Source: Struthio camelus
Taxonomy: Eukaryota
Direction: 5' to 3'
DNA: 64,000 bases
NCBI RefSeq assembly: GCF_040807025.1
Contig: NC_090970.1
Location: forward strand, 837,359 to 901,358
The notes below the pieces were generated by a model. It saw nothing but the letters and a program-made list of their open reading frames with translations, did not search any database and had not been told where the DNA came from. A program made the translations under genes and the position numbers. Of this stretch, positions 3,716-38,178 are shown in pieces. Numbering within the stretch: position 1 is the first letter of the stretch; every line of letters begins with the position of its first letter.

Positions 3716-3725
3716 GGCCCCTCAC

Positions 3726-4925: not shown

Positions 4926-4932
4926 CGGGCAC

Positions 4933-5028
4933 CTGCAGGGCGCGAGCGAAGCGGTCCAGGCAGTTGCCCACGGCCACGTCCAAGGTCTCGCCCAGGATGC
5001 GGTAGCGGCGCCGGGCGAAGGCGATCAC
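4933..5028 (-). CDS. OSGEP: OSGEP exon 4
   Basis: [32 protein letters not shown] matches human [32 protein letters not shown]. 32 codons, phase 0. Confidence 0.9.
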
Positions 5029-7780: not shown

Positions 7781-7899
7781 CCGCCCGCGTCACCGCCCGC
7801 GTCACTGCCCGCGCTCCTCTCCCCGCGCCGCCGCCGCCGCCGCCGCCGCTTCCTACTTCCGCTTCCGGCCCCCGCGGGTCCCGCCCCTTCCGCTCACGT

Positions 7900-8460: not shown

Positions 8461-8538
8461 GCTGCGGCGGCGGGCGCTGATTGGCTGCGGATGTGGGGGC
8501 GGGGCCTGGGGCGGAGGGGGCGGGGCCTGGCGGCGGCC

Positions 8539-8608
8539 ATGCCGAAGCGCAGCAAGAAGGAGGCGGCGGCGGACGGAGATGGCGGCGAGGAGGCGGCGGC
8601 GGAGACCG
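8539..8608 (+). CDS. APEX1: APEX1 coding exon 1 (ATG 8539; donor g|GTAGGG, phase 1)
   Basis: MPKRSKKEAAADGDGGEEAAAET(G) matches human [23 protein letters not shown]. Confidence 0.8.
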
Positions 8609-8699: not shown

Positions 8700-10740
8700 C
8701 ACTGCCCCCCCCACGATATCCCAGTGCCCCCCCACCCCCCTCCCAGTGCTCCCAGTAGCCCCCCCAGTGGCCCCAGTGCCTCCCAGTGCTCTCCCAGTGC
8801 TCCCAGTAGCCCCCCAGTGCCTCCCAGTGCTCTCCCAGTGCTCCCAGTAGCCCTCCCAGTGCCTCCCAGTACCTCCCAGTTCCTCCCAGTACTCCCAGTA
8901 GCCCCCCGTGCTCTCCCAGTGCTCCCAGTAGCCCCCCCAGTGCCCCCAGTACCTCCCAGTGCTCTCCCAGTGCTCCCAGTAGCCCCCCCAGTGCCTCCCA
9001 GTGCTCTCCCAGTGCTCCCAGTACTCCCAGTAGCCCCCCCAGTGCCTCCCAGTACCTCCCAGTCCCTCCCAGTGCCCCCAGTAGCCCCCCCAGTCCCTCC
9101 CAGTCCCTCCCAGTGCTCTCCCAGTGCTCCCAGTAGCCCCCCCAGTGCTCCCAGTAGGCCCCCGTGCTCTCCCAGTGCTCCCAGTAGCCCCCCCAGTCCC
9201 TCCCAGTGCCTCCCAGTCCCTCACAGTGCTCTCCCAGTGCCCCCAGTAGCCCCCCACTGTCTCCCAGTGCTCTCCCAGTGCTCCCAGTAGCCCCCCCCAG
9301 TGCCTCCCCGTGCTCTCCCAGTGCCTCCCAGTGCCTCCCAGTGCCTCCCAGTGCTCCCAGTAGCCCCCCCAGTGCCTCCCAGTGCTCTCCCAGTGCCTCC
9401 CAGTTTTCTCCCAGTGCTCCCAGTGCTCTCCCTGTAGCCCCCAGTGCTCTCCCAGTGCCTCCCAGTGCTCCCAGTAGCCCCCAGTGCTCTCCCAGTGCCT
9501 CCCAGTTTTCTCCCAGTGCCTCCCAGTGCTCCCAGTGCCTCCCAGTACCTCCTAGTGCTCTCCCAGTGCTCCCAGTAGCCCCCCACTGCCTCCCAGTAGC
9601 CCCCGTGCTCTCCCAGTGCTCCCAGTAGCACCCCCAGTCCCTCCCAGTGCTCTCCCAGTGCTCCCAGTAGCCCCCCCAGTGCCTCCCAGTAGCCCCCAGT
9701 AGCCTCCCAGTGCCCCCAGTAGCCTCCCAGTGCTCCCAGTAGCCCCCCCACTGCCCCCCACTGTCTCCCAGTGCTCTCCCAGTGCCCCCAGTAGCCCCCC
9801 ACTGCCTCCCTGTGCCTCCCAGTGCTCTACCAGTGCCCCCAGTAGCCCCCCCAGTGCCTCCCAGTACCTCCCAGTCCCCCCAGTAGCCCCCCAGTCCCTC
9901 CCAGTGCTCTCCCAGTGCTCCCAGTACCCCCCACTGCCTCCCAGTACCTCCCAGTGCTCTCCCAGTGCCCCCAGTGCTCTCCCAGTGCTCCCAGTAGCCC
10001 CCCCAGTGCTCCCAGTAGCCCCCCATGCTCTCCCAGTGCCCCCAGTAGCCCCCCAGTCCCTCCCAGTCCCTCCCAGTCCCTCCCAGTGCCCTCCCAGTGC
10101 CCTTACAATCCCTTCTAGTCTCTCCCCGTGCTTCCCAGTCCCTCCCAGTCCCTCCTAGTGCCCTCCCAGTGCCCTTCCAATCCCTCCCAGTGCCTCCCAG
10201 TCCCTCCCAGTGCCCCCCAGTGCCTCCCAGTGCCCCCCAGCGCCCTCCCAATCCCTCCCAGTACCCCCCAGTCCCTCCCAGTGCCCCCCAGTGCCCTTCC
10301 AATCCCTCCCAGTCCCTCCCAGTGCCTCCCAGTGCCCCCCAGCGCCCTCCCAATCCCTCCCAGTACCCCCCAGTCCCTCCCAGTGCCCCCCAGTGCCCTT
10401 CCAATCCCTCCCAGTGCCTCCCAGTGCCCCCCAGCGCCCTCCCAATCCCTCCCAGTACCCCCCAGTCCCTCCCAGTGCCCCCCAGTGCCCTTCCAATCCC
10501 TCCCAGTGCCTCCCAGTGCCCCCCAGCGCCCTCCCAATCCCTCCCAGTGCCCCCCCAGTCCCTCCCAGTGCCCCCCAGTGCCCTTCCAATCCCTCCCAGT
10601 GCCCCCCAGTGCCCCCCAGCGCCCTTCCAATCCCTCCCAGTGCCCCCCCAGTCCCTCCCAGTGCCCCCCAGTGCCCTTCCAATCCCTCCCAGTGCCTCCC
10701 AGTGCCCCCCAGCGCCCTCCCAGTGCCCCCCAGTGCCCCC
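8700..10740. repeat. Tandem repeat family (CCCAGTGCTCTCCCAGTGCTCCCAGTAGCCCCCCAGTGCCTC; further on CCCAGTGCCCCCCAGTGCCCTTCCAATCCCTC)n filling APEX1 intron 1
   Basis: Read directly. Produces the spurious P/S-rich ORFs 8724-10868. Confidence 0.85.
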
Positions 10741-10959: not shown

Positions 10960-12060
10960 GGGGCCCCGGCGTCCGGGAGGGGCCCCGGCGTCCGGGGGGG
11001 GGCCCAGGGGTCCGGGGGAAGGGGACCCAGGTGTCCGGGAGGGGCCCAGGCGTCCGGGGAGGGGGCCCAGGTGTCCGGGAGGGGCCCAGGCGTCCGGGGA
11101 GGGGGCCCAGGTGTCCGGGGAAGGGGCCCCGGCGTCCGGGGAGGGGGCCCAGGTGTCCGGGGAAGGGGCCCAGGCGTCCGGGGAGGGGCCCAGGTGTCCG
11201 GGGAGGGGCCCCGGCGTCCGGGGAGGGGGCCCAGGTGTCCGGGGAAGGGGCCCAGGCGTCCGGGGAGGGGGCCCAGGTGTCCGGGGAGGGGGCCCAGGCG
11301 TCCGGGGAAGGGGCCCAGGCGTCCGGGGAGGGGCCCAGGTGTCCGGGGAGGGGCCCAGGTGTCCGGGGAGGGGCCCAGGTGTCCGGGGGAGGGACCCAGG
11401 CGTCCGGGAGGGGGCCCAGGCGTCCGGGGAAGGGGCCCAGGCGTCCGGGAAGGGGCCCAGGCGTCCAGGGAAGGGGCCCAGGCGTCCGGGGAGGGGCCCC
11501 GGCGTCCGGGAGGGGCCCAGGCGTCTGGGAGGGGGCCCAGGCGTCCGGGAGGGGCCCCGGCGTCCGGGAGGGGGCCCAGGCGTCCGGGAGGGGCCCCAGC
11601 GTCCAGGGAAGGGGCCCAGGCGCCCGGGGGAGGGGCCCAGGTGTCCGGGGAAGGGGCCCAGGTGTCCGGGGGGGGCCCAGGCGTCCGGGGAGGGGCCCAG
11701 GCGTCCGGGGGAAGGGGCCCAGGCATCCGGGGAGGGGGCCCAGGCGTCCGGGAGGGGCCCAGGTGTCCGGGGAAGGGACCCAGGCGTCTGGGGAAGGGAC
11801 CCAGGCGTCTGGGGAAGGGACCCAGGCGTCCGGGAAGGGACCCAGGCGTCCGGGGGAAGGGGCCCAGGTGTCCGGGGAAGGGGCCCAGGTGTCCGGGAAG
11901 GGACCCAGGCGTCCAGGGAGGGGCCCAGGCGTCCGGGGAAGGGGCCCAGGCGTCCGGGGAGGGGCCCAGGTGTCCGGGAAGGGGCCCAGGCGTCCGGGGA
12001 GGGGCCCAGGCGTCCGGATGAGGGGACCCAGGTCTCCGGGGAAGGGGCCCAGGCGTCCGG
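10960..12060. repeat. 21-bp minisatellite (G-strand) filling APEX1 intron 2
   Basis: ggggcccaggcgtccggggaggg... starts 3 nt after the exon-2 donor. Confidence 0.9.
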
Positions 12061-12153
12061 GGGAGACCCGAAACGCCGGCCCTCGAAGACCTGACGGACC
12101 CAGGCGTCCCGCACCCGGGGGGGGGGTGGGTGGGCCGCGCCGGTGTCGCCCAG

Positions 12154-16559: not shown

Positions 16560-17740
16560 GCGGCCCCCAGGCTCTCCGGGGGCCCAGGCGTCCGGGGAGG
16601 GGCCCAGGCGTCCAGGGAGGGGACCCAGGTGTCCGGGGAGGGGCCCAGGTGTCCGGGGGAGGGACTCAGGCGTCCGGGGAGGGGGCCCAGGCGTCCGGGA
16701 AGGGGGCCCAGATGTCCGGGGAGGGGCCCAGGCGTCCGGGGAAGGGGCCCAGGTGTCCGGGGAGGGGCCCAGGCGTCCGGGGAGGGGGCCCAGGCGTCCG
16801 GGGAGGGGCCCAGGTGTCCGGGGGAGGGACCCAGGTGTCCGGGGAGGGGCCCAGGTGTCCGGGGAAGGGCCCAGGCGTCCGGGGAAGGGGCCCAGGTGTC
16901 CGGGGCAGGGACCCAGGTGTCCGGGGAGGGGCCCAGGTGTCCGGGGAAGGGCCCAGGCGTCCGGGGAAGGGCCCAGGTGTCCGGGGAGGGGCCCAGGTGT
17001 CCGGGGGAGGGGCCCAGGTGTCCGGGGGAGGGACTCAGGCGTCCGGGGAAGGGGCCCAGGTGTCCGGGGGGGGGGCCCAGGTGTCCGGGGACAGGGGCCC
17101 AGGCGTCTGGGTGAGGGGCCCAGGCGTCCGGGGGGGGGCCCAGGCGTCCGGGGAGGGGCCCAGGCGTCCGGGGAGGGGGCCCAGGTGTCCGGGGAGGGGG
17201 CCCAGGCGTCCGGGGAGGGGCCCAGGTGTCCGGGGGAGGGACCCAGGTGTCCGGGGAAGGGGCCCAGGCATCCGGGGAAGGGCCCAGGTGTCCGGGGAGG
17301 GGCCCAGGTGTCCGGGGGAGGGACTCAGGCGTCCGGGGAAGGGGCCCAGGTGTCCGGGGGGGGGGCCCAGGTGTCCGGGGACAGGGGGCCCAGGCGTCTG
17401 GGGAAGGGGCCCAGGCGTCCGGGTGAGGGGCCCAGGCGTCCGGGGAGGAACCCAGGCGTCCGGGGAAAGGGCCCCGGTGTCCGGGGAGGGGCCCAGGTGT
17501 CCGGGTGAGGGGCCCAGGTGTCCGGGGAGGGGCCCAGGTGTCCGGGGAGGGGCCCAGGCGTCCGGGAAGGGGCCCAGGTGTCCGGGGGAGGGACCCAGGT
17601 GTCCGGGGCAGGGGCCCAGGCGGCCGGGGGAGGGACCCAGGCGTCCGGGGCAGGGGCCCAGGCGTCCGGGTGAGGGGCCCAGGCGTCCGGGTGAGGGGCC
17701 CGGGTGTCCGGGGAGGAAAGAACAAAACGGGCCCAGGCGT
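16560..17740. repeat. 21-bp minisatellite (G-strand), APEX1-PIP4P1 intergenic
   Basis: Read directly. Confidence 0.9.
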
Positions 17741-19839: not shown

Positions 19840-21110
19840 TGCGGGCCCGGACGCCTGGGTCCCTCGGCTCGGACGCCTGGGCCCCTCCCCGGACGCCTGG
19901 GTCCCCTTCACCGGACGCCTGGGCCCCTCCCCGGACACCTGGGTCCCCTTCACCAGACGCCTGGGTCCCTCCCCGGACGCCTGGGTCCCCTTCCCCGGAC
20001 GCCTGGGTCCCCTTCCCCGGACGCCTGGGCCCCTTCCCCGGACGCCTGGGCCCCTCCCCGGACGCCTGGGCCCCCTCCCCGGACGCCTGGGTCCCCTTCA
20101 CCGGACGCCTAGGCCCCTCCCCGGACGCCTGGGCCCCTCCCCGGACGCCTGGGTCCCCTTCACCGGACGCCTGGGCCCCTTCCCCGGACACCTGGGCCCC
20201 TCCCCAGATGTCTGGATCCCCTTCACCGGACACCTGGGCCCCTTCCCCGGACGCCTGGGCCCCCTCCCCGGACGCCTGGGTCCCCTTCACCGGACGCCTG
20301 GGCCCCCTTCACCGGACGCCTGGGCCCCCTTCACCGGACACCTAGGCCTCTTCCCGGACACCTGGGCCCCTCCCCGGACGCCTGCGTCCCTCGGCTCAGA
20401 CACCTGGGCCCCTCCCTGGACACCTGGGCCCCTTCCCCAGACGCATGGGCCCCTCCCCGGACACCTGGGCCCCTCCCCGGACGCCTGGGCCCCCTTCACC
20501 GGACACCTAGGCCTCTTCCCGGACACCTGGGCCCCTCCCCGGACACCTGGGCCCCTTCCCCGGACACCTGGGCCCCTTCCCGGACGCCTGGGCCCCTCCC
20601 GGACACCTGGGCCCCTCCCCGGACACCTGGGCCCCTTCCCCGGACGCCTGGGCCCCCTTCCCCGGACACCTGGGCCCCTTCCTGGACACCTGGGCCCCCT
20701 TCCCCGGACACCTGGGCCCCTCCTGGACACCTGGCCTCCTCCCCGCACGCCTGGGTCCCCTTCACCGGACTCCTGGGCCCCTTCCCGGACACCTAGGCCT
20801 CTTCCCGGACGCCTGGGCCCCTCCCCGGACGCCTGGGTCCCTTCCCCGGACGCCTGGGCCCCCTCCCCGGACGCCTGGGTCCCCTCCCCGGACGCCTGGG
20901 CCCCTTCCCCAGACGCCTGGGCCCCTCCCCCGGACACCTGGGCCCCTCCCCCGGACACCTGGGCCCCCTCCCCCGGACACCTGGGCCCCCTCCCCGGACA
21001 CCTGGGTCCCCTTCACCGGACACCTGGGCCCCTCCCCGGACACCTGGGTCCCCTTCACCGGACGCCTGGGCCCCCTCCCCCGGACGCCTGGGCCCCTCCC
21101 CGGACGCCGG
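19840..21110. repeat. 21-bp minisatellite filling PIP4P1 intron 6
   Basis: Read directly. Confidence 0.9.
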
Positions 21111-21124
21111 GGCCCCTCACTCAC

Positions 21125-23869: not shown

Positions 23870-25250
23870 GGCGGGCCGGACGCCTGGGCCCCCTGCCCGG
23901 ACGCCTGGGCCCCTCCCCGGACGCCTGGGCCCCCTGCCCGGACGCCTGGGCCCCTCCCCGGACGCCTGGGCCCCCTGCCCGGACGCCTGGGCCCCTCCCC
24001 GGACACCTGGGCCCCCTGCCCGGACGCCTGGGCCCCTTCCCGGACACCTGGGCCCCCTGCCCGGACACCTGGGCCCCCTGCCCGGACGCCTGGGCCCCTT
24101 CCCGGACACCTGGGCCCCCTGCCCGGACGCCTGGGCCCCTGCCCGGACGCCTGGGCCCCCTGCCCAGACGCCTGGGCCCCTTCCCGGACACCTGGGCCCC
24201 CTGCCCGGACACCTGGGCCCCCTGCCCGGACGCCTGGGCCCCCTGCCCGGACGCCTGGGCCCCTTCCCGGACACCTGGGCCCCCTGCCCGGACACCTGGG
24301 CCCCCTGCCCGGACGCCTGGGCCCCTCCCCGGACACCTGGGCCCCCTGCCCGGACGCCTAGGCCCCCTGCCCGGACGCCTGGGCCCCTGCCCAGACGCCT
24401 GGGCCCCTTCCCCGGACGCCTGGGCCCCTCCCTGGACACCTGGGTCCCTCCCCGGACACCTGGGTCCCTTTCCCCGGACACCTGGGCCCCTCCCTGGACA
24501 CCTGGGTCCCTTCCCCGGACGCCTGGGCCCCTCCCCGGACACCTGGGCCCCTTCCCCGCACACCTGGGCCCCTTCCCCGGACGCCTGGGCCCCCTCCCCG
24601 GACGACTGGGCCCCTCCCCGGACGCCTGGGCCCCTCCCTGGACACCTGGGCCCCTTCCCCGCACACCTGGGCCCCTTCCCCGGATGCCTGGGCCCCTTCC
24701 CCCGGACGCCTGGGCCCCTTCCCCGGACGCCTGGGTCCCTTCCTCGGACGCCTGGGCCCCTTCCCCGGACACCTCGGTCCCTCCCCGGACACCTGGGCCC
24801 CTTCCCCGGACACCTGGGCCCCTGCCCCGGACGCCTGGGCCCCTCCCCAGGACGCCTGGGCCCCCTCCCCGGACGCCTGGGCCCCTCCCCGGACGCCTGG
24901 GCCCCTTTCCCCGGACGCCTGGGCCCCTCCCCAGGACGCCTGGGCCCCTCCCCGGACGCCTGGGTCCCTCTCCCGGACGCCTGGGCCCCTCCCCCGGACG
25001 CCTGGGCCCCTTCCCGGACGCCTGGGCCCCTTCCCCGGACGCCTGGGCCCCTCCCCCGGACGCCTGGGCCCCTCCCCGGACACCTGGGCCCCCTTCCCCG
25101 GACGCCTGGGTCCCTTCCCCGGACGCCTGGGCCCCTTCCCGGACACCTGGGCCCCTTCCCCGGACACCTGGGCCCCTCCCCGGACGCCTGGGCCCCTTCC
25201 CCGGACGCCGGGGCCCCTCCCCGGACGCCTGGGCCCCCCCGGCCGCGGGG
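23870..25250. repeat. 21-bp minisatellite filling PIP4P1 intron 2
   Basis: Read directly. Confidence 0.9.
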
Positions 25251-25255
25251 CTCAC

Positions 25256-25434
25256 GGTGGCCTCGTTGCACACGTGACACTTCACCACGTGCTGGTGCGT
25301 TTTGCCCTCGACGCTGATGCGGCTCTGACACACGCGGCACGTGACCGCCGGCCCCGCCCCCCCTTCGGGGCTGCCCAATGGCGAGTAAGGGGGCGGGGCC
25401 TCCGCCCCTGGCCCCGCCCCCGGCGAGGCCCCGC
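25256..25434 (-). CDS. PIP4P1: PIP4P1 exon 2 (+/-1 nt at the 5' end)
   Basis: [59 protein letters not shown] matches human [49 protein letters not shown]. Donor acc|GTGAGC. Confidence 0.8.
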
Positions 25435-25645
25435 CTGCGGGAGACGCCCGGTAAAGGGGAGTGGCGTTAGCCCCGCCCCCTCCCCAAGCCCCGCCCCACT
25501 CCTCTAAGCCCCGCCCACCACGGCGCACCGCCCCACCTAGGAAGGCCCCGCCCACGTCAAGCCCCGCCCCCAGACCGCGGCGCCCTCTCAGGCCCCGCCC
25601 CTCCCAAAGCCCCGCCCCCTCCCCGTAGCCCCGCCCCCTCCTCAC

Positions 25646-25733
25646 CGGGGGGGGTCGCGGGTGCCGCCGCCGCCGCCGCCGGCCCCGGTTCGGGCTCGGC
25701 CGGCAGCAGCGGGGAGCGTTCGCCGTCCGCCAT
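25646..25733 (-). CDS. PIP4P1: PIP4P1 coding exon 1 (ATG 25733-25731; proposed donor g|GTGAGG about 25645; +/-1 nt)
   Basis: [29 protein letters not shown](G) matches human [18 protein letters not shown].... The exon 1/2 split is inferred from a frame change plus GTGAGG and tctcccgcag sites. Confidence 0.6.
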
Positions 25734-25749
25734 GGCCGCCCGTGCCGGC

Positions 25750-26550
25750 CGCCGTAGCGCCGCCCCCACGTGACGCCGGCGCCGCGCCGCGATTGGGCCC
25801 GGCCGGCCGCGCCGCCGCTCACGTGACCCCTCCCCCTCCCTCCGCGGCGCTCCCTCGCCACCACGTGACGCCGCGTCGCTAGGCGACCGCCCCGCCCCAG
25901 CGCTCCGCCGCGCTCGCCCGACGCCCTCCCCGCGCTTCTCATTGGCCCGCCGGCCCGCCCGCGCCACGTGACGCCGCGTTGCTAGGCGACCGCCTCCCCT
26001 AGGGCTCCGCCCCGCTCGCCCGACGCCCTCCCCGCGCTTCTCATTGGCCCGCCGCCCCGCCCGCACCACGTGACGCCGCGTCGCTAGGCGACCGCCCCGC
26101 CCATGCGCTCCGCCCCGCTCGCCCGACGCCCTCCCCGCGCTTCTCATTGGCCCGCCGCCCCGCCCGCGCCACGTGACGCAGCGTTGCTAGGCGACCGCCC
26201 CCCGCTCACCCACAGCGCGCCGCCGGCGGTCACGTGCGCCTCTCCGCCGCCTCCCATTGGCTCCGGGCGGTCGGGAGCGGAGCGGCGCCTTCACCCCCCT
26301 CCCCTCACCCAACTCCCCTTCCTTCCGCCCCGCCCACCCGCCGCCGCTGACCAATGGCGGCCGCCGCTGCCCGCCGTCGCCCGGGGCGACGCGGCGGCGG
26401 TGCCGGCGGACGGCGCCGCTGATTGGCTCTCCCGGCCGTGACGTCGGCGCGGGTGAGGGGGGGGCGGTTTTAGGCGGGCAGCGGCGACCGGCCCGCTCAT
26501 AACTGACCGGCGACTATGGACGGCAGGTGCGCGGTGCGCATGCGCGGTGG
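25750..26550. promoter_or_regulatory. PIP4P1 promoter / CpG island: about 105-bp unit tandemly repeated about 3.5 times, carrying a CCAAT box (TCTCATTGGCCC) plus a CACGTGAC E-box (CLEAR-like). Six CACGTG E-boxes in total (about 25821, 25864, 25967, 26069, 26172, 26231). Additional CCAAT boxes at about 26255, 26352 and 26425, and an NRF1 palindrome GCGCATGCGC at about 26536-26545.
   Basis: Repeat unit CGCGCTTCTCATTGGCCCGCC...CCACGTGACGCCGCGTTGCTAGGCGACCGCC...GCTCCGCCCCGCTCGCCCGACGCCCTCCC read at about 25930, about 26031 and about 26140, immediately upstream of the PIP4P1 ATG (25733, minus strand). Confidence 0.6.
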
Positions 26551-27099
26551 GGGGGGGCCGGACACCTGGGTCCCTCCCCGGACACCTGGGCCCCTCACCC
26601 GGGACGCCTGGGCCCCTTTCCCGGACACCTGGGCCCCTTCCCCTGGACACCTGGGCCCCTCCCCGGACGCCTGGGCCCCTCCCCGGACGCCTGGGCCCCT
26701 CCCGGGACGCCTGGGCCCCTCCCCGGACTCCTGGGCCCCTTCCCCGGACACCTGGGCCCCTTCCCCGGACGCCTGGGCCCTTCCCCGGACACCTGGGCCC
26801 CTTCCCCGGACACCTGAGTCCCTCCCCGGACGCCTGGGCCCATCACCCGGACGCCTGGGCCCCTTCCCCGGACGCCTGGGCCCCTCACCCGGACACCTGG
26901 GCCCGTTGCCCACTTCCGGGTTGCCCCTTTCCCTCGTTCCCCCCCCCCGTCCCCCGCCGGCCCGAACCAGCCAATCAGGAGGCGGCGCGGCGCTCACACC
27001 CCCCGCCGGGCCGGCCAATCAGAGTGCGGCTCTCCTGACACGCCTTCCCTCCCCCATCCACCCTAGGGGCCCAGGCGTCCGGGCCCTGCCCTACGCGTG

Positions 27100-30000
27100 G
27101 GCGGAAGGGGTCACGTGGGTCCCACGTCATGCCGCAGTCACGCTGTGGGTCCCGGGGCCACCCGTGGGTCCGGTCGTGGGTGTTGGGGCCGTCTGTGGGG
27201 CGCCGCGTGGGTCCCACCGTGGGTCCCGGTCCATCCGTGGGTCCGGTCGTGGGTCCTGGACCATCTGTGGGTCCTGTTATGGGTGCTGGGGTTGGTGATG
27301 GGTCTCACCATGGTTCCTGGTCCATCCGTGGGTCCGGTCGTGGGTCCTGGACCATCTGTGGGTCCTGTTATGGGTGCTGGGGTTGGTGATGGGTCTCACC
27401 ATGGTTCCTGGTCCATCCGTGGGTCCGGTCGTAGGTCCTGGACCATCTGTGGGTCCTGTTATGGGTGCTGGGGTTGGTGATGGGTCTCACCATGGTTCCT
27501 GGTCCATCCGTGGGTCCGGTCGTAGGTCCTGGACCATCTGTGGGTCCTGTTATGGGTGCTGGGGTTGGTCATGGGTCTCACCATGGCTCCTGGGCCATCC
27601 GTGGGTGCTGTTATGGGTGCTGGGGTTGGTGATGGGTCTCGCTCTGGGTCCTGGTCCATCCATGGGTCCTGTTATGGGTGCTGGGGTTGGTCAAGGGTCC
27701 CACCATGGCTCCTGGTCCATCCGTGGGTGCTGTTATGGGTGCTGGGGTTGGTCATGGGTCACGCTCTGGCTCCTGGCTGCATGCCCAAGTCATGCCATGG
27801 GTCCTGGGTTACATCATGGGTCTCCCCATAGGTGTTAGGTGCATCCATGGGTCACGTTCTGGGTTGTGGGTGCATCCATGGGTGCTGTTATGGGTGCTGG
27901 GGTTGATTATGGGTCTCACCATGGGTCCCGGTCTGTCCATGGGTCCTGTCATGGGTGCTGGGGTTGGTCATGGGTCTCGCTCTGGGTCCTGACTCCATGC
28001 CCAAGTCACACCGTGGGTCCTGGGTCACGCTATGAGTCTCACCATAGGTGTTAGGTGCATCCATGGGTCACGGTCTGGGTTGTGGGTGCATCTGTGGGTT
28101 ATATTACGGGTGCTGGGGTTGGTTATGGGTCTCACCATGGTTCCTGGTCCATCCGTGGGTCCCACCATGGTTCTTGATCCGTCTATGGGTGCTGTTATGG
28201 GTGCTGGGGTTGGTCAAGGGTCCCACCATGGCTCCTGGTCCATCCGTGGGTTCTGTTATGGGTGCTGGGGTTGGTCGTGGGTCCCACTATGGGTCCTGGT
28301 CTATCCATGGGTGCAGTTATGGGTGCTGGGGTTGGTCATGGGTCTCACTCTAGGTCTTGACTCCATGCCCAAGTCATGCCATGGGTCCTGGGTCATACCA
28401 TGGGTCTCACCACAGGTCTTGCATCCATCCATGGGTCGTGTTATGGGTGCTGGGGTTGGCCATGGGTCGCACGCTGGGTCCCGGGTCCATGCCCAAGTCA
28501 CGCCATGGGTCTCACGATAGGACTTAGGTTCATCCATGGGTCACTCCATAGGTCCTGGGCCCATTCCTGAGTCCTGCCAGGGGTTCTGGGACCAACTATG
28601 GGTCACACTATGGGTCCCAGGTCCATTCACGGGTCCCGCGATGGGTCCTGGGTCCATCCCTGAGTCCCACCATGCGTCCCAGGTCTATCCATGGGTCATA
28701 TTAGGGAGGCTGGGTCCATCCTTGAGTCCCACCATAGGTCTTGGGCCCATCCGTGGGTCCAACCATGGGTTCTGGGACCATCCCTGGGTCGTGCTATGGG
28801 TCCTGGGTCCATCCCTGAGTCCCACCATAGGTCCTAGGTCCATCCCTGAGCTGTGCTATGGGTCTCGGGGTGATCATGGAAGCCACCGTAGGTTCTGAAT
28901 CCATCTATGGGTTGCGGGTCGCACCACAGGTCATGCTATGGGTCCTGGCCTCACCCATGGGTCACGCCATGGATCCTGGGTTATGCTATGGGTCAGATAG
29001 TGGGTCATGGGTCCATCCATGAGTCCTGCCGTGGGTGGGTGCTAGGTCCATCAGTGAGTCCCACCATAGGTCCTGACACCATCCCTGGGTCCCACCATGA
29101 ACTTCAGGTCCATCCGTGGGTCACGCTATGGGTCTTGAGCCCAACTCTGGGGCGCAGCATGATTAGTAGCTCATAAAGTAGGTCCATCAAGGGGTGCTGG
29201 GTCCATCCCTGGGTCCCACCACGAGCTTCAGGTCCATGCCTGGGTCACGCTATGGGTGCTGGGTCCCTGTATGGGTCACAACATGCTTAGTAGATGACAA
29301 TGTAGGTTGTGTTATGGGTCTTGGGTCCATCTCTGGGTCACAACATGATTAGTTAGATCATGACATAGATCATGTTATGGGTGCTGGGTCCATCCCTGGG
29401 TCCCACCATGAGCTTCAGGTCCATGCCTGGGTCACGTTATGGCTCTTGGGTCCATCCCTGGGTCCCACCATGAGCTTCAGGTCCATCTGTGGGTCACGCT
29501 ATGGGTCTTGGGTCCATCTCTGGGGCACAGCGTGATTAGTAGCTCATAAAGTAGGTCCATCAAGGGGTGCTGGGTCCATCCCTGGGTCCCACCATGAGCT
29601 TCAGGTCCATCCGTGGGTCATGCTATGGGTCTTGGGTCCATCTCTGGGTCGCAGCATGCTTAGTAGATGACAGTGTAGGTCGTGTTATGGGTGCTGGGTC
29701 CATCCCTGGGTCCCACCACGAGCTTCATGTCCATCCGTGGGTCATGCTATGGGTGCTGGGTCCCTGTATGGGTCGCAACATGCTTAGTAGATGACAGTGT
29801 AGGTCGTGTTATGGGTGCTGGGTCCATCCCTGGGTCGCTGTATGGGTGCTGGGTCCATGCTTGGACCATGCTATGGGTCTTGGGTCCATCTCTGGGGCGC
29901 AACATGATTAGTTAGATCATGACATAGATCATGTTATGGGTCTTGGGTCCATCCCTGGGTCCCACCATGAGTTTCAGGTCCATGCCTGGGTCACGTTATG

Positions 30001-33000
30001 GGTCTTGGGTCCATGCCTGGGTCCCACCACGAGCTTCAGGTCCATCCGTGGGTCATGCTATGGGTGCTGGGTCCCTGTATGGGTCGCAACATGCTTAGTA
30101 GATGACAGTGTAGGTCGTGTTATGGGTGCTGGGTCCATCCCTGGGTCGCTGTATGGGTGCTGGGTCCATACTTGGACCATGCTATGGGTCTTGGGTCCAA
30201 CTCTGGGTCACAACATGCTTAGTAGATGACAATGTAGGTCGTTTTATGGGTCTTGGGTCCATCCATGAGTCCCTGTATGGGTGCTGGGTCCACCCCTGGG
30301 TCACGCTATGGGTCTTGGGTCCATCCCTGGGTCCCACCATGAGCTTCAGGTCCATGCCTGGGTCACGCTATGGGTGCTGGGTCCCTGTATGGGTCACAAC
30401 ATGCTTAGTAGATCACAACATAGGTCGTGTTATGGGTGCTGGGTCCATCCATGGGTCCCACCATGAGCTTAAGGTCCATGCCTGGGTCACGCTATGGGTG
30501 CTAGGTCCCTGTATGGGTCGCAACATGCTTAGTAGATGACAGTGTAGGTCGTGTTATGGGTGCTGGGTCAATCCCTGGGTCGCTGTATGGGTGCTGGGTC
30601 CATGCTTGGACCATGCTATGGGTCTTGGGTCCATCTCTGGGGCGCAACATGATTAGTTAGATCATGACATAGATCATGTTATGGGTGCTGGGTCCATCCC
30701 TGGGTCCCACCACGAGCTTCAGGTCCATGCCTGGGTCACGCTATGGGTGCTGGGTCCCCGTATGGGTCGCAACATGCTTAGTAGATGACAATGTAGGTCG
30801 TGTTATGGGTGCTGGGTCCATCCCTGGGTCCCTGTATGGGTGCTGGGTCCATGTATGGGTGCTGGGTCCATGCTTGGACCATGCTATGGGTCTTGGGTCC
30901 ATCTCTGGGGCGCAACATGATTAGTTAGATCACAACATAGGTTGTGTTATGGGTGCTGGGTCCATCCCTGGGTCCCACCACGAGCTTCAGGTCCATGCCT
31001 GGGTCACGCTATGGGTGCTGGGTCCATCCCTGGGTCCCACCACGAGCTTCAGGTCCATCCGTGGGTCATGCTATGGGTCTTGGGTCCATCTCTGGGGCAC
31101 AGCATGATTAGTAGCTCATAAGGTAGGTCCATCAAGGGGTGCTGGGTCCATCCCTGGGTCCCACCACGAGCTTCAGGTCCATGCCTGGGTCACGCTATGG
31201 GTGCTGGGTCCCTGTATGGGTCACAACATGCTTAGTAGATGACAATGTAGGTTGTGTTATGGGTCTTGGGTCCATCTCTGGGTCACAACATGATTAGTTA
31301 GATCATGACATAGATCATGTTATGGGTGCTGGGTCCATCCCTGGGTCCCACCATGAGCTTCAGGTCCATCCGTGGGTCACATTATGGGTCTTGGGTCCAT
31401 CCCTGGGTCCCACCACGAGCTTCAGGTCCATGCCTGGGTCACGCTATGGGTGCTGGGTCCCTGTATGGGTCACAATGTGATTAGTAGATTATAATGTAGG
31501 TCGTGTTATGGGTGCTGGGTCCATCCCTGGGTCCCACCACGAGCTTCAGGTCCATCCGTGGGTCACACTATGGGTCTTGGGTCCATCTCTGGGGCACGGC
31601 GTGATTAGTAGCTCATAAAGTAGGTCCATCAAGGGGTGCTGGGTCCATCCCTGGGTCCCACCACGAGCTTCAGGTCCATCCGTGGGTCACGCTATGGGTG
31701 CTGGGTCCCTGTATGGATCATGACATAGATCATGTTATGGGTGCTGGGTCCATCCCTGGGTCCCACTACAAGCTTCAGGTCCATGCCTGGGTCATGCTAT
31801 GGGTGCTGGGTCCCTGTATGGGTCGCAACATGCTTAGTAGATGACAGTGTAGGTTGTGTTATGGGTGCTGGGTCCATCCCTGGGTCCCTGTATGGGTGCT
31901 GGGTCCATACTTGGACCATGCTATGGGTCTTGGGTCCATCTCTGGGTCGCAGCATGCTTAGTAGATGACAATGTAGGTTGTGTTATGGGTCTTGGGTCCT
32001 TCTCTGGGTCACAACATGATTAGTTAGATCATGACATAGATCATGTTATGGGTGCTGGGTCCATCCCTGGGTCCCACCACGAGCTTCAGGTCCATCCCTG
32101 GGTCACGTTATGGGTCTTGGGTCCATCCCTGGGTCCCACCATGAGCTTCAGGTCCATCCCTGGGTCACGTTATGGGTCTTGGGTCCATCTCTGGGGCACA
32201 GCGTGATTAGTAGCTCATAAAGTAGGTCCATCAAGGGGTGCTGGGTCCATCCCTGGGTCCCACCATGAGCTTCAGGTCCATCCGTGGGTCATGCTATGGG
32301 TCTTGGGTCCATCTCTGGGTCGCAGCATGCTTAGTAGATGACAGTGTAGGTCGTGTTATGGGTGCTGGGTCCATCCCTGGGTCCCTGTATGGGTGCTGGG
32401 TCCATGTATGGGTGCTGGGTCCATGCTTGGACCATGCTATGGGTCTTGGGTCCATCTCTGGGGCGCAACATGATTAGTTAGATCATGACATAGATCATGT
32501 TATGGGTGCTGGCTCCATCCCTGGGTCCCACCACGAGCTTCAGGTCCATCCGTGGGTCATGCTATGGGTCTTGGGTCCATCTCTGGGGCACAGCATGATT
32601 AGTAGCTCATAAAGTAGGTCCATCAAGGGGTGCTGGGTCCATCCCTGGGTCCCACCACGAGCTTCAGGTCCATGCCTGGGTCACGCTATGGGTGCTGGGT
32701 CCCTGTATGGGTCACAACATGCTTAGTAGATGACAATGTAGGTTGTGTTATGGGTCTTGGGTCCATCTCTGGGTCACAACATGATTAGTTAGATCATGAC
32801 ATAGATCATGTTATGGGTGCTGGGTCCATCCCTGGGTCACGTTATGGGTCTTGGGTCCATCCCTGGGTCCCACCATGAGCTTCAGGTCCATCTGTGGGTC
32901 ACGCTATGGGTCTTGGGTCCATCCCTGGGTCCCACCACGAGCTTCAGGTCCATGCCTGGGTCACGCTATGGGTGCTGGGTCCCTGTATGGGTCACAATGT

Positions 33001-36000
33001 GATTAGTAGATTATAATGTAGGTCGTGTTATGGGTGCTGGGCCCATCCCTGGGTCCCACCACGAGCTTCAGGTCCATCCGTGGGTCACACTATGGGTCTT
33101 GGGTCCATCTCTGGGGCACGGCGTGATTAGTAGCTCATAAAGTAGGTCCATCAAGGGGTGCTGGGTCCATCCCTGGGTCCCACCACGAGCTTCAGGTCCA
33201 TCCGTGGGTCACGCTATGGGTGCTGGGTCCCTGTATGGATCATGACATAGATCATGTTATGGGTGCTGGGTCCATCCCTGGGTCCCACTACAAGCTTCAG
33301 GTCCATGCCTGGGTCATGCTATGGGTGCTGGGTCCCTGTATGGGTCGCAACATGCTTAGTAGATGACAGTGTAGGTTGTGTTATGGGTGCTGGGTCCATC
33401 CCTGGGTCGCTGTATGGGTGCTGGGTCCATACTTGGACCATGCTATGGGTCTTGGGTCCAACTCTGGGTCACAACATGCTTAGTAGATGACAATGTAGGT
33501 CGTTTTATGGGTCTTGGGTCCATCCATGAGTCCCTGTATGGGTGCTGGGTCCACCCCTGGGTCACGCTATGGGTCTTGGGTCCATCCCTGGGTCCCACCA
33601 TGAGCTTCAGGTCCATGCCTGGGTCACGCTATGGGTGCTGGGTCCCTGTATGGGTCACAACATGCTTAGTAGATCACAACATAGGTCGTGTTATGGGTGC
33701 TGGGTCCATCCATGGGTCCCACCATGAGCTTAAGGTCCATGCCTGGGTCACGCTATGGGTGCTAGGTCCCTGTATGGGTCGCAACATGCTTAGTAGATGA
33801 CAGTGTAGGTCGTGTTATGGGTGCTGGGTCAATCCCTGGGTCGCTGTATGGGTGCTGGGTCCATGCTTGGACCATGCTATGGGTCTTGGGTCCATCTCTG
33901 GGGCGCAACATGATTAGTTAGATCATGACATAGATCATGTTATGGGTGCTGGGTCCATCCCTGGGTCCCACCACGAGCTTCAGGTCCATCCGTGGGTCAT
34001 GCTATGGGTCTTGGGTCCATCTCTGGGTCGCAGCATGCTTAGTAGATGACAGTGTAGGTCGTGTTATGGGTGCTGGGTCCATCCCTGGGTCCCTGTATGG
34101 GTGCTGGGTCCATGTATGGGTGCTGGGTCCATGCTTGGACCATGCTATGGGTCTTGGGTCCATCTCTGGGGCGCAACATGATTAGTTAGATCACAACATA
34201 GGTTGTGTTATGGGTGCTGGGTCCATCCCTGGGTCCCACCACGAGCTTCAGGTCCATGCCTGGGTCACGCTATGGGTGCTGGGTCCATCCCTGGGTCCCA
34301 CCACGAGCTTCAGGTCCATCCGTGGGTCATGCTATGGGTCTTGGGTCCATCTCTGGGGCACAGCATGATTAGTAGCTCATAAGGTAGGTCCATCAAGGGG
34401 TGCTGGGTCCATCCCTGGGTCCCACCACGAGCTTCAGGTCCATGCCTGGGTCACGCTATGGGTGCTGGGTCCCTGTATGGGTCACAACATGCTTAGTAGA
34501 TGACAATGTAGGTTGTGTTATGGGTCTTGGGTCCATCTCTGGGTCACAACATGATTAGTTAGATCATGACATAGATCATGTTATGGGTGCTGGGTCCATC
34601 CCTGGGTCCCACCATGAGCTTCAGGTCCATCCGTGGGTCACATTATGGGTCTTGGGTCCATCCCTGGGTCCCACCACGAGCTTCAGGTCCATGCCTGGGT
34701 CACGCTATGGGTGCTGGGTCCCTGTATGGGTCACAATGTGATTAGTAGATTATAATGTAGGTCGTGTTATGGGTGCTGGGTCCATCCCTGGGTCCCACCA
34801 CGAGCTTCAGGTCCATCCGTGGGTCACACTATGGGTCTTGGGTCCATCTCTGGGGCACGGCGTGATTAGTAGCTCATAAAGTAGGTCCATCAAGGGGTGC
34901 TGGGTCCATCCCTGGGTCCCACCACGAGCTTCAGGTCCATCCGTGGGTCACGCTATGGGTGCTGGGTCCCTGTATGGATCATGACATAGATCATGTTATG
35001 GGTGCTGGGTCCATCCCTGGGTCCCACTACAAGCTTCAGGTCCATGCCTGGGTCATGCTATGGGTGCTGGGTCCCTGTATGGGTCGCAACATGCTTAGTA
35101 GATGACAGTGTAGGTTGTGTTATGGGTGCTGGGTCCATCCCTGGGTCCCTGTATGGGTGCTGGGTCCATACTTGGACCATGCTATGGGTCTTGGGTCCAT
35201 CTCTGGGTCGCAGCATGCTTAGTAGATGACAATGTAGGTTGTGTTATGGGTCTTGGGTCCTTCTCTGGGTCACAACATGATTAGTTAGATCATGACATAG
35301 ATCATGTTATGGGTGCTGGGTCCATCCCTGGGTCCCACCACGAGCTTCAGGTCCATCCCTGGGTCACGTTATGGGTCTTGGGTCCATCCCTGGGTCCCAC
35401 CATGAGCTTCAGGTCCATCCCTGGGTCACGTTATGGGTCTTGGGTCCATCTCTGGGGCACAGCGTGATTAGTAGCTCATAAAGTAGGTCCATCAAGGGGT
35501 GCTGGGTCCATCCCTGGGTCCCACCATGAGCTTCAGGTCCATCCGTGGGTCATGCTATGGGTCTTGGGTCCATCTCTGGGTCGCAGCATGCTTAGTAGAT
35601 GACAGTGTAGGTCGTGTTATGGGTGCTGGGTCCATCCCTGGGTCCCTGTATGGGTGCTGGGTCCATGTATGGGTGCTGGGTCCATGCTTGGACCATGCTA
35701 TGGGTCTTGGGTCCATCTCTGGGGCGCAACATGATTAGTTAGATCATGACATAGATCATGTTATGGGTGCTGGCTCCATCCCTGGGTCCCACCACGAGCT
35801 TCAGGTCCATCCGTGGGTCATGCTATGGGTCTTGGGTCCATCTCTGGGGCACAGCATGATTAGTAGCTCATAAAGTAGGTCCATCAAGGGGTGCTGGGTC
35901 CATCCCTGGGTCCCACCACGAGCTTCAGGTCCATGCCTGGGTCACGCTATGGGTGCTGGGTCCCTGTATGGGTCACAACATGCTTAGTAGATGACAATGT

Positions 36001-37760
36001 AGGTTGTGTTATGGGTCTTGGGTCCATCTCTGGGTCACAACATGATTAGTTAGATCATGACATAGATCATGTTATGGGTGCTGGGTCCATCCCTGGGTCA
36101 CGTTATGGGTCTTGGGTCCATCCCTGGGTCCCACCATGAGCTTCAGGTCCATCTGTGGGTCACGCTATGGGTCTTGGGTCCATCCCTGGGTCCCACCACG
36201 AGCTTCAGGTCCATGCCTGGGTCACGCTATGGGTGCTGGGTCCCTGTATGGGTCACAATGTGATTAGTAGATTATAATGTAGGTCGTGTTATGGGTGCTG
36301 GGCCCATCCCTGGGTCCCACCACGAGCTTCAGGTCCATCCGTGGGTCACACTATGGGTCTTGGGTCCATCTCTGGGGCACGGCGTGATTAGTAGCTCATA
36401 AAGTAGGTCCATCAAGGGGTGCTGGGTCCATCCCTGGGTCCCACCACGAGCTTCAGGTCCATCCGTGGGTCACGCTATGGGTGCTGGGTCCCTGTATGGA
36501 TCATGACATAGATCATGTTATGGGTGCTGGGTCCATCCCTGGGTCCCACTACAAGCTTCAGGTCCATGCCTGGGTCATGCTATGGGTGCTGGGTCCCTGT
36601 ATGGGTCGCAACATGCTTAGTAGATGACAGTGTAGGTTGTGTTATGGGTGCTGGGTCCATCCCTGGGTCCCTGTATGGGTGCTGGGTCCATACTTGGACC
36701 ATGCTATGGGTCTTGGGTCCATCTCTGGGTCGCAGCATGCTTAGTAGATGACAATGTAGGTTGTGTTATGGGTCTTGGGTCCGTCTCTGGGTCACAACAT
36801 GATTAGTTAGATCATGACATAGATCATGTTATGGGTGCTGGGTCCATCCCTGGGTCCCACCATGAGCTTCAGGTCCATCCCTGGGTCACGTTATGGGTCT
36901 TGGGTCCATCCCTGGGTCCCACCATGAGCTTGAGGTCCATGCCTGGGTCACGCTATGGGTCTTGGGTCCATCTCTGGGGCACAGCGTGATTAGTAGCTCA
37001 TAAAGTAGGTCCATCAAGGGGTGCTGGGTCCATCCCTGGGTCCCACCATGAGCTTCAGGTCCATCCGTGGGTCATGCTATGGGTCTTGGGTCCATCTCTG
37101 GGTCGCAGCATGCTTAGTAGATGACAGTGTAGGTCGTGTTATGGGTGCTGGGTCCATGCCTGGGTCCCACCACGAGCTTCAGGTCCATCTGTGGGTCACG
37201 CTATGGGTCTTGGGTCCATCTCTGGGGCACAGCGTGATTAGTAGATCATAAAGTAGGTCCATCAAGGGGTGCTGGGTCCATCCCTGAGTCCCACCACGAG
37301 CTTCAGGTCCATGCCTGGGTCACGCTATGGGTGCTGGGTCCCTGTATGGGTCGCAACATGCTTAGTAGATGACAGTGTAGGTCGTGTTATGGGTGCTGGG
37401 TCCATCCCTGGGTCCCTGTATGGGTGCTGGGTCCATGCTTGGACCATGCTATGGGTCTTGGGTCCATCTCTGGGTCACAACATGATTAGTTAGATCATGA
37501 CATAGATCATGTTATGGGTGCTGGGTCCATCCCTGGGTCCCACCACGAGCTTCAGGTCCACCCCTGGGTCACGCTATGGGTTTTGGATCCATCCCTGGGT
37601 CCCACTACGAGCTTCAGGTCCATCCGTGGGTCACGCTATGGGTCTTGGGTCCATCTCTGGGGCGCAGCGTGATTAGTAGCTCATAAAGTAGGTCCATCAA
37701 GGGGTGCTGGGTCCATCCCTGGGTCCCACCACGAGCTTCAGGTCCATGCCTGGGTCACGC
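27100..37760. repeat. About 10.6-kb satellite array between the PIP4P1 promoter and PNP. Monomers of about 110-130 bp (e.g. ATGGGTCTTGGGTCCATCCCTGGGTCCCACCACGAGCTTCAGGTCCATSC...). 27.1-29.1 kb is a divergent GGGTCC-rich part; 29.1-37.76 kb is organised in a 3261-bp higher-order repeat (about 2.6 copies).
   Basis: Identical ORF translations recur exactly 3261 nt apart: 30117/33378, 30281/33542, 30676/33937, 31732/34993, 32238/35499, 32808/36069, 33254/36515. There is internal 1522/1739 sub-periodicity (31732 vs 33254). Confidence 0.9.
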
Positions 37761-38045
37761 TATGGGTCTTGGGTCCAGCCGTGGCTCCAAGCGTGGCTTC
37801 TGCCTCGCGCCGGGGGTCCCGCCCCGGGGTCCCGCCCCCTCCCCGCTCCTCCCACGTCCTCCCACGGCCCGTCCCACCACCTCCCCTCCCCTTGCCCGGC
37901 CCCGCGCCCCCCCGCCCCCGGCCCCGCCACGTCCCTATGACCTCCCAGACTCCAAAACACGTGTCGGACGGGTCCCGCGTGTCTTCCTCTCGGGGGCGCC
38001 GGCGTTGGCAGCTACGAGGCCTGCGCGGCGGCGGCAGCCTGGGTG

Positions 38046-38178
38046 ATGGCCCGGGCCGGGGGGCCGCCCCCCCGCCTGGCCGTGGTCTGCGGCTCCGGCC
38101 TGGGCGAATTGGCCGAGGCGTTGAGCGAACCGCAGGCCTTCGACTACGCCGACCTGCCCCACTTCCCCCGCAGCACCG
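38046..38178 (+). CDS. PNP: PNP exon 2 (from first in-frame ATG 38046; the frame stays open upstream to about 37941)
   Basis: The human exon1/exon2 junction (ac|C TAT GAA) corresponds here to an acceptor ttggcag|C TAC GAG at 38012, so the true start may lie in an upstream mini-exon. M(M)ARAGGPPPRLAVVCGSGLGELAEALSEPQAFDYADLPHFPRST matches human [38 protein letters not shown]. Donor g|GTGAGT. Confidence 0.8.

Follow-up and report, generated by a model that had tools for sequence, protein, structure and literature searches.

A tandemly amplified E-box/CCAAT module in the predicted bidirectional PIP4P1/PNP promoter of the ostrich

Genes and features at the locus

This analysis concerns a tandem repeat in front of the gene PIP4P1 (TMEM55B) of the ostrich, Struthio camelus, on contig NC_090970.1. 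The whole 64,000-nucleotide stretch that was analyzed (positions 837,359 to 901,358 of the forward strand) is referred to as the window, and coordinates are counted from its first nucleotide. A sequence-only reading of this DNA had placed the repeat in the PIP4P1 promoter and had noticed in it CACGTG E-boxes resembling the coordinated lysosomal expression and regulation (CLEAR) element of TFEB/TFE3. The gene assignment could be verified. PIP4P1 exons were placed by tblastn, translation and splice-site inspection, and the assembled protein of 255 amino acids matched the Pfam family Tmemb_55A (1.4e-106) and was 61-63% identical to rodent PIP4P1. The exon model is identical to Struthio camelus XP_068777949.1 and agrees with the NCBI model. 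PIP4P1 is encoded on the minus strand, with exons 1 and 2 followed by five more and the stop near 19695, and the repeat indeed lies upstream of its ATG. The following features define the region between PIP4P1 and its neighbor PNP:

25646 to 25733, minus strand: coding part of PIP4P1 exon 1 (ATG 25733-25731; GT donor 25645-25644, in phase with exon 2)
25256 to 25434, minus strand: PIP4P1 exon 2, placed by tblastn and translation
25734 to 26515: intergenic PIP4P1/PNP region, 782 bp from ATG to ATG, a CpG island (80% GC, CpG observed/expected 1.2)
26516 to 26526, plus strand: PNP exon 1, ATGGACGGCAG/gt donor, spliced in frame to exon 2
26351 to 26445: PNP-proximal part, with CCAAT at 26351-26355 (plus strand), ATTGG at 26422-26426 and a TGACGTC resembling a cAMP response element (CRE) at 26439-26445
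26536 to 26545: NRF1 consensus GCGCATGCGC, situated within PNP intron 1 at 10 nt beyond the donor of exon 1, kept in the eagle

PNP exon 1 joins exon 2 (approximately 38012-38178) in frame, giving the product MDGSYEACAAAAAW...LAVVCGSGLG (MDGSYEAC...LAVVCGSGLG), and the remaining PNP exons reach approximately 45.5 kb of the window. The tiny exon 1 is kept in the eagle (ATGGCGGGCAG/gt). Synteny of APEX1, PIP4P1 and PNP in the ostrich matches that in rodents. The two genes are arranged head-to-head, less than 1 kb apart as measured from ATG to ATG, with a CpG island between them, and 25734-26515 is thus predicted to be the bidirectional promoter of PIP4P1 (minus strand) and PNP (plus strand). All birds sampled keep the head-to-head arrangement, PNP being annotated 391-586 bp from PIP4P1 in the eagle, pigeon and Aegotheles, and in lizards and rodents the 5 kb upstream of PIP4P1 are free of annotated genes. 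In the PNP-proximal part, the CRE is also found in Rhea, pigeon and cowbird, and a TATA-like box occurs in the eagle, cowbird, pigeon and Aegotheles. The NRF1 site, previously counted as part of the PIP4P1 promoter, is present but lies within PNP intron 1.

Two side observations adjoin this region. PIP4P1 intron 1 (25435-25645) holds an array of GGGGCGGGGC units (Sp1-type GC-box) with a period of approximately 19 nt directly downstream of exon 1, which is also found in Rhea (5757-5997 of that locus) and in the eagle (10090-10440) and could belong to the promoter. In PNP intron 1, a non-repeat island at 26900-27120 contains CAGCCAATCAGG (26970) and GGTCACGTGGGT (27112) and could represent a further E-box/CCAAT pair or an alternative promoter.

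Architecture of the tandem array

The half of the intergenic region nearest PIP4P1 is occupied by the following elements, with positions relative to the PIP4P1 ATG given for the E-boxes:

25861 to 26201: tandem repeat, 103 bp x 3.3 (Tandem Repeats Finder (TRF), 92% matches, no indels)
25767 to 25796, minus strand: proximal module, CCAAT 25796-25792, N19, GTCACGTGG (E-box 25772-25767, -39)
25820 to 25825: palindromic E-box TCACGTGA, -92; GGTCACGTGAGC in gene orientation, 9/10 CLEAR positions
25862 to 25867: repeat E-box 1, GTCACGTGG in gene orientation, -134
25965 to 25970: repeat E-box 2, -237
26067 to 26072: repeat E-box 3, -339
26170 to 26175: repeat E-box 4, -442
25875 to 25887, minus strand: X-box-like palindrome, GTCGCCTAGCGAC in gene orientation, with copies at 25978-25990, 26080-26092 and 26183-26195
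25941 to 25945, minus strand: repeat-unit CCAAT, reading GGGCCAATGAGA in gene orientation and separated from the upstream E-box by 19 nt, with copies at 26043-26047 and 26146-26150
26231 to 26260, minus strand: distal non-repeat module, CCAAT 26260-26256, N19, GCACGTGAC (E-box 26236-26231, -503)

The array is located 128-468 bp upstream of the ATG. A unit of about 105 bp repeated about 3.5 times had been described before; the repeat itself is confirmed, its size being more exactly 103 bp x 3.3. CACGTG occurs seven times rather than six times in the interval 25750-26550 (starting at 25767, 25820, 25862, 25965, 26067, 26170 and 26231). The CLEAR-like context holds for all of them: each of the seven E-boxes agrees with the CLEAR consensus GTCACGTGAC at 8-9 of 10 positions, lies within 503 bp of the ATG and is flanked by T on one side or both. 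Among the remaining CACGTG sequences of the window a T flank is found in 7/14, and three of these seven are located in one other promoter-like block. Three additional CACGTG sequences in PIP4P1 exon 2 (25271, 25286 and 25338) are dictated by the coding sequence (TCRVC, QHVV, CHVC).

Each unit, read in gene orientation, consists of an X-box resembling RFX sites, then GTCACGTGG and then a CCAAT box, with dense GC boxes. The X-box-like palindrome has the form GTCGCCTAGC(A/G)AC and is placed 5 nt upstream of each repeat E-box. Compared with the palindromic RFX consensus GTNRCC-N(0-3)-RGYAAC, the strict form GTNRCC-N-RGYAAC fits two of the four ostrich copies (GTCGCCTAGCAAC, GCAAC), while the others deviate by one mismatch (GCGAC). 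The CCAAT box, said to be in each unit, is present in three; the fourth, partial unit stops short of it. ATTGG, which is CCAAT in gene orientation, was found at 25941, 26043 and 26146 in the array and at 25792, 26256 and 26422 outside of it, and the lone plus-strand CCAAT of the promoter is at 26351. The CCAAT box of NF-Y sites is followed by S-R, and such flanks are seen in the repeat (CCAATGAG), the proximal module (CCAATCG) and the distal module (CCAATGGG). E-box and CCAAT are separated by 19 nt in the repeat units as well as in the proximal and distal modules. The units alternate in an A-B-A-B pattern, with GCAAC or GCGAC in the X-box and GTGGCG or GTGGTG flanking the E-box, which points to a duplication, divergence of the copies and a subsequent duplication of the dimer.

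Motif density was compared with 5000 dinucleotide-preserving shuffles of the intergenic region (25735-26515, 781 bp). The seven CACGTG sequences contrast with a shuffle mean of 0.13 (maximum 2 in 5000), and the seven CCAAT/ATTGG sequences with a mean of 0.20, a number that was reached in none of the 5000 shuffles. The enrichment persists if the array is collapsed to one unit, with four CACGTG vs 0.09 expected and five CCAAT vs 0.16 expected (0/5000 in both cases).

Orthologous promoters

The PIP4P1 loci of six other birds, two lizards, rodents (four promoters) and a frog were compared, with CACGTG and CCAAT counted within 600 bp of the PIP4P1 ATG; the outgroup sample contains neither a turtle nor a crocodilian. 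The following numbers of E-boxes and repeats were obtained:

Ostrich: 7 CACGTG, 103 bp x 3.3
Eagle: 5 CACGTG, 93 bp x 2.8 (TRF)
Cowbird: 4 CACGTG, spacing approximately 103 bp
Pigeon: 2 CACGTG, no repeat noted
Aegotheles (owlet-nightjar): 5 CACGTG, spacing approximately 80 bp
Parrot: 4 CACGTG, no repeat noted
Rhea pennata: 1 CACGTG, a different repeat, 54 bp x 9.8
Lizards (two): 3-4 CACGTG, no recognizable repeat
Rodents: 3-4 CACGTG plus TCATGTG, no recognizable repeat
Frog: 1 CACGTG, no repeat

The motif on which the proposal of conserved regulation hinged, TCACGTG/CACGTGAC, is present in every amniote promoter fetched (six birds, two lizards, rodents), and conserved regulation therefore stays the likeliest view of these sequences. 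All CACGTG sequences of the orthologs have a T flank, with the exception of one of four in the rat, and the CCAAT boxes are in gene orientation in every ortholog amniote promoter. The earlier suggestion of a different architecture in the ostrich goes too far. Mammals and lizards already possess 3-4 E-boxes and several co-oriented CCAAT boxes, the ostrich (seven E-boxes, the most among the 12 promoters compared) stands at the high end, and the tandem form is common to other birds rather than specific to the ostrich. What the sequence-only reading did not contain is the bidirectionality with PNP, the RFX-type X-box of each unit and the pairing of E-box and CCAAT as in composites of NF-Y and USF.

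In the eagle, cowbird, pigeon, owlet-nightjar and parrot, two to five copies of the X-box/E-box/CCAAT module are found in fixed order. This neognath module comprises an X-box GTTGCCNGGCAAC, a variable spacer, GTCACGTGA/G and then CCAAT, and its units match the strict RFX consensus (GTTGCCGGGCAAC). The distance between E-box and CCAAT is 10-12 nt in 19/19 pairs from the five species. An alignment of 16 modules showed invariant X-box half-sites and an invariant E-box core, with a variable spacer of 5-44 nt between them. The neognath order is also that of the ostrich unit, but the 19-nt gap there is consistent with an 8-nt insertion. As units are closest to other units of their own species in the ostrich, eagle and Aegotheles, lineage-specific amplification or homogenization is indicated.

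Rhea pennata, whose assembly is flagged as low quality for PIP4P1, keeps the proximal module, and a single GTCACGTGG is left at -52. Orthology of the ostrich array to the corresponding Rhea sequence was rejected because blastn matched the flanks only, the interval between the kept flanks being filled with the 54-bp x 9.8 repeat that carries only an X-box. As a separate observation, the CRE TGACGTCAC of Rhea pennata occupies the position equivalent to that of the distal ostrich E-box GCACGTGAC (26231; Rhea 4781-4960 vs window 26218-26464). This looks like a swap of a bHLH-ZIP (basic helix-loop-helix plus leucine zipper) site and a basic leucine zipper (bZIP) site at a homologous position through a small change.

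The lizard and rodent promoters contain repeated CCAAT-N19-27-TCACGTG pairs; the 11-nt spacing of E-box and CCAAT is absent from them, and their T-flanked E-boxes are nonetheless kept. Neither X-boxes nor any recognizable tandem repeat were found in these lizard and rodent promoters. Multiple CLEAR-type E-box/CCAAT sites thus appear to be ancestral to amniotes, with the tandem form alone being avian, and among the species sampled the X-box and head-to-tail arrangement would be confined to birds.

It was considered whether the array chiefly controls PNP, or PNP and PIP4P1 equally. Only 315 bp separate the distal edge of the array (26201) from the PNP ATG (26516), and the head-to-head arrangement has been retained in all sampled birds. 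Nevertheless, all modules are oriented relative to PIP4P1, and PNP possesses a CRE and CCAAT of its own nearby, complemented by the TATA-like box in neognaths. Lizards and rodents, which lack an annotated gene in the 5 kb upstream, possess these E-box/CCAAT sets too, so that the sets would ancestrally belong to PIP4P1 and not to PNP. Predominant or equal control of PNP is consequently judged to be very unlikely.

Candidate binding factors

The human TMEM55B promoter contains four CLEAR motifs, and the gene is induced on starvation via TFEB/TFE3 and by sterol depletion via SREBF2 (Willett et al. 2017, PMC5691037), which substantiates the previous statement that mammalian TMEM55B is a TFEB/TFE3 target. 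By our own count, the four human motifs agree with GTCACGTGAC at 7-9 of 10 positions, and the sites of the rodent promoters correspond to them. The ostrich gene is orthologous to this target validated in mammals, and by orthology its E-boxes would correspond in birds to the CLEAR motifs of mammals.

Other factors recognize similar sites. At genomic sites shared by NF-Y with USF1/2 or MAX, a distance of 10-12 bp between CACGTG and CCAAT is preferred according to ChIP-seq (chromatin immunoprecipitation sequencing) data, and an association of NF-Y with RFX5 has been reported (Dolfini et al. 2016, PMC4889920). USF2 occupies CLEAR motifs in fed cells and competes with TFEB on starvation (Kim et al. 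2024, PMC11436898). As the E-box/CCAAT pair corresponds to the known NF-Y/USF composite, USF is probably at least as likely an occupant of the E-boxes as TFEB. The 19-nt gap places the ostrich array outside of the preferred composite spacing. A literature search for RFX7 and TMEM55B together found no paper linking the two.

The motif content also fits a constitutive housekeeping composite of NF-Y and USF, with RFX, which would sustain basal transcription from the bidirectional PIP4P1/PNP CpG island while MiT/TFE factors are insignificant in birds. Bidirectional promoters typically contain CCAAT and NRF1 motifs, the invariable 10-12 nt of the neognath pairs is the signature of NF-Y/USF sites, and a similar trio of motifs is present at 61.3-62.7 kb, in a block unrelated to this promoter. 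USF moreover binds the same GTCACGTG core as TFEB, yet USF2 and TFEB share such sites rather than exclude each other (PMC11436898). In mammals, the gene with the orthologous E-boxes is induced by TFEB/TFE3 (PMC5691037), and lizards and rodents keep T-flanked E-boxes without the 11-nt spacing. A purely constitutive role is a possibility to be taken seriously but is regarded as rather doubtful; most plausibly, the E-boxes are shared between USF and MiT/TFE factors.

A further proposal is that E-boxes, NF-Y sites and GC boxes together form mainly a sterol-response element for SREBP2. SREBPs bind CACGTG-type sites and require NF-Y or Sp1 as cofactors, and the ostrich units are dense in GC boxes. 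No classical sterol regulatory element (SRE, TCACNCCAC) was noticed, in the course of an analysis that included no search aimed at SREs. The induction of TMEM55B by sterol depletion via SREBF2 is in line with this proposal, while TFEB/TFE3 contribute as well (PMC5691037), and sequence alone has no power to separate the bHLH-ZIP factors. A principal function in sterol response is judged to be very unlikely.

Two other known element types were rejected. The endoplasmic reticulum stress response elements ERSE and ERSE-II (ATF6/XBP1; CCAAT-N9-CCACG) do not apply, as in gene orientation the E-box strand has the sequence GTCACGTGG and CCACG occurs on the other strand, with gaps of 19 nt. A carbohydrate response element (ChoRE) has two E-boxes 5 nt apart, whereas the E-boxes in the ostrich promoter are at least 42 nt apart.

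Repeat-rich surroundings and the origin of the tandem form

The ostrich PIP4P1 gene sits on a 6.96-Mb record, and tandem repeats detected by TRF make up 77% of the window. A second bidirectional promoter, located at 7774-8539 between OSGEP (minus strand, ATG 7773) and APEX1 (plus strand, ATG 8540), is amplified in a similar manner. Its repeat (7952-8464) consists of 7.3 copies of a 70-bp unit with 97% identity, each containing GCTGATTGGCTGG (CCAAT box) plus GC boxes, and the promoter counts 10 ATTGG sequences in the ostrich vs 2 in the rat counterpart. Locally derived tandem repeats have been termed 'sequence stuttering' in introns and exons of avian dot-chromosome genes (PMC12954441, in which the word 'promoter' is absent), and tandem repeats account for more than 70% of dot-chromosome introns in the telomere-to-telomere zebra finch assembly (bioRxiv 2025.10.17.683159). 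The PIP4P1 array has the properties of such stuttering: it is local and imperfect, its unit length falls in the range of tens to hundreds of bp, the DNA is GC-rich and repeat-saturated, and the unit is homologous to single modules of other birds. An origin of the unit from a retroelement or dispersed repeat is unsupported, since blastn of the bird promoters against the window matched only the PIP4P1 array and a block at approximately 61.5-61.9 kb (approximately 70-80% identity over 50-124 bp).

This block, to which the neognath PIP4P1 promoters match weakly, is part of a promoter-like block at 61340-62760. The latter is intronic and lies between NDRG-family exons (CPVLLVVGD at approximately 59.6 kb, SSCMTRLSRSRTAS at approximately 63.03 kb); NDRG (Ndr family) was the only result of a Pfam scan of open reading frames at 46-64 kb. 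The block holds 17 X-boxes (GTTGCCAGGGCAAC and variants), the majority inside a 53-bp tandem repeat, along with three GTCACGTGTGC E-boxes (61364, 61395 and 61467) and several sites of the types GGCCAATGGG and GGGGCGTGGCC.

Several other repeats were observed in the window. Introns of OSGEP, APEX1 and PIP4P1, among them most PIP4P1 introns, are filled with a 21-bp minisatellite (CCGGACGCCTGGGCCCCTTCC and its complement) that also flanks the promoter; examples are found at 298-587, 3104-3723, 3999-4929, 10960-12062, 16579-17716, 19846-21118, 23876-25238, 26558-26904 and 48348-49125. The family also exists in Rhea pennata, at 82-89% identity. PNP intron 1 (26527-38011, approximately 11.5 kb) is composed of this minisatellite and approximately 10 kb of a 62/124/373-bp satellite with 55% GC and a strong AT skew. 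Within this intron, two segments of 3.26 kb (30883-34143 and 34144-37400) are apparently near-identical duplicates, as suggested by matching TRF rows. A search with Rfam at gathering threshold detected no non-coding RNA in the 64-kb window.

These surroundings bear on the question of whether extra CLEAR-like sites were selected for a stronger or more switch-like TFEB response in the ostrich or in birds. The ostrich has the most E-boxes, five of the six other birds keep several copies, and neither the E-box of the four repeat units nor the CCAAT box of the three that carry it shows any variation. Yet the four units have diverged by approximately 8%, which gives no power to demonstrate a stronger constraint on motifs than on spacers. 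Repeat is the default state of the window, the OSGEP/APEX1 promoter was amplified likewise, and Rhea has lost the multiplicity, with an E-box-free repeat at the same place. The amplified site is CLEAR-like in one half only and its spacing is non-canonical. For all of these reasons the tandem form requires no adaptive or regulatory explanation, and adaptive amplification is considered quite unlikely. The amplification most likely reflects tolerated dot-chromosome stuttering of a functional module.

Interpretation

Probably, an old PIP4P1 promoter module under mammalian-like TFEB/USF control was amplified in the ostrich by a repeat-prone mutational regime. The anatomy of the promoter, the enrichment of motifs, the orthology of the gene and the conservation across species were observed directly; from these we infer every contact of TFEB, USF and NF-Y with the DNA, the transcription starts and the response to TFEB. 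The half of the region nearest PIP4P1 would act as a composite of an RFX-type X-box, a T-flanked class-B E-box GTCACGTG(G/A) and CCAAT for NF-Y, in which the multi-copy E-box/CCAAT pairing is presumably amniote-ancestral and the counterpart of the four human CLEAR motifs. In the ostrich, one module may have been duplicated, and after divergence of the copies the dimer would have been duplicated again, yielding the 103-bp x 3.3 array. The amplifying process would be the stuttering, by unequal exchange or slippage, that saturates avian dot-chromosome DNA. NF-Y is expected to keep the promoter open, and the E-boxes would be bound in fed cells by USF1/2, on starvation or lysosomal stress by the MiT/TFE factors TFEB/TFE3, and possibly also by SREBP2. 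Occupancy by TFEB/TFE3 should then raise PIP4P1 transcription as it does in mammals, the extra copies being tolerated and at most modulating the output without any new regulatory logic.

Several observations weigh against this interpretation. The amplified site GTCACGTGG resembles CLEAR in one half only, and its 19-nt distance to CCAAT vs the 11 nt kept in neognaths could make the amplified copies less suitable as composite sites. The single E-box of Rhea pennata indicates that multiplicity is dispensable, subject to the low quality of that assembly for PIP4P1. The block at 61340-62760 in an NDRG2 intron, with its similar X-box, CCAAT and GTCACGTG motifs, suggests a generic grammar of GC-rich promoters rather than one specific for lysosomes. 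T-flanked CACGTG sequences have no power to separate MiT/TFE, USF and SREBP, and the modules could also serve PNP, which shares the region.

The finding is regarded as real but fairly ordinary: the promoter of a known TFEB target is seen in an avian form that is stuttered, bidirectional and X-box-bearing, and no new regulatory principle is revealed. It would extend the link between TFEB/TFE3 and PIP4P1, so far restricted to mammalian cells, to sauropsids in the form of conserved promoter motifs. Dot-chromosome repeat generation appears to reach promoters and to multiply their transcription-factor sites (both of the two bidirectional promoters in the window), and promoter stuttering bears on the continued expression of genes in unstable regions. 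The bird promoters further offer a natural series for effects of site number and spacing, with 1, 2, 4, 5 or 7 E-boxes and CCAAT at 11 or 19 nt. A bolder and unlikely idea is that the head-to-tail X-box/E-box/CCAAT array has been kept throughout crown birds by concerted evolution, its copy number acting as a heritable dial of TFEB/USF input, and that 'stuttered promoters' are a distinct cis-regulatory mode on dot chromosomes. If this were true, such promoters, including that of OSGEP/APEX1, would represent a mode of cis-regulatory evolution not described so far.

Comparison with known systems

The closest known system is the human and mouse TMEM55B promoter, which belongs to the orthologous gene in the same APEX1-PIP4P1-PNP synteny and also presents several T-flanked CACGTG/CATGTG sites within approximately 500 bp of the ATG amid co-oriented CCAAT boxes. 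It differs in that four of the seven ostrich sites are near-identical copies in a 103-bp array to which an X-box is added. The ostrich promoter is in addition common to PNP (less than 1 kb away), whereas rodents and lizards have no annotated gene within 5 kb upstream.

The NF-Y/USF composite (PMC4889920), of which tandem copies exist in LTR12/ERV9 long terminal repeats, shares with the avian modules both motifs, the tandem iteration and the 10-12-nt gap of neognaths. In contrast, the ostrich gap is 19 nt, no sign of a retroelement is seen and the modules reside in the promoter of a conserved single-copy gene. A resemblance also exists to the S-X-Y module of major histocompatibility complex (MHC) class II genes, in which the X-box is bound by RFX and the Y-box by NF-Y in cooperation, a bZIP site lying in the middle. 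The avian modules follow this order with an RFX-like X-box, a bZIP/bHLH-ZIP site and CCAAT, and co-association of RFX and NF-Y is documented (PMC4889920). Here, an E-box instead of a CRE is found in the middle, the S box is missing and a rigid enhanceosome is disfavored by the spacer between X-box and E-box, the length of which ranges between 5 and 44 nt. Finally, the array is similar to avian dot-chromosome stuttering in its GC-rich sequence, its unit length (tens to hundreds of bp), its local origin and its turnover between species. Stuttering has been reported for introns and exons, whereas the stuttered unit of the ostrich consists of transcription-factor sites of a promoter.

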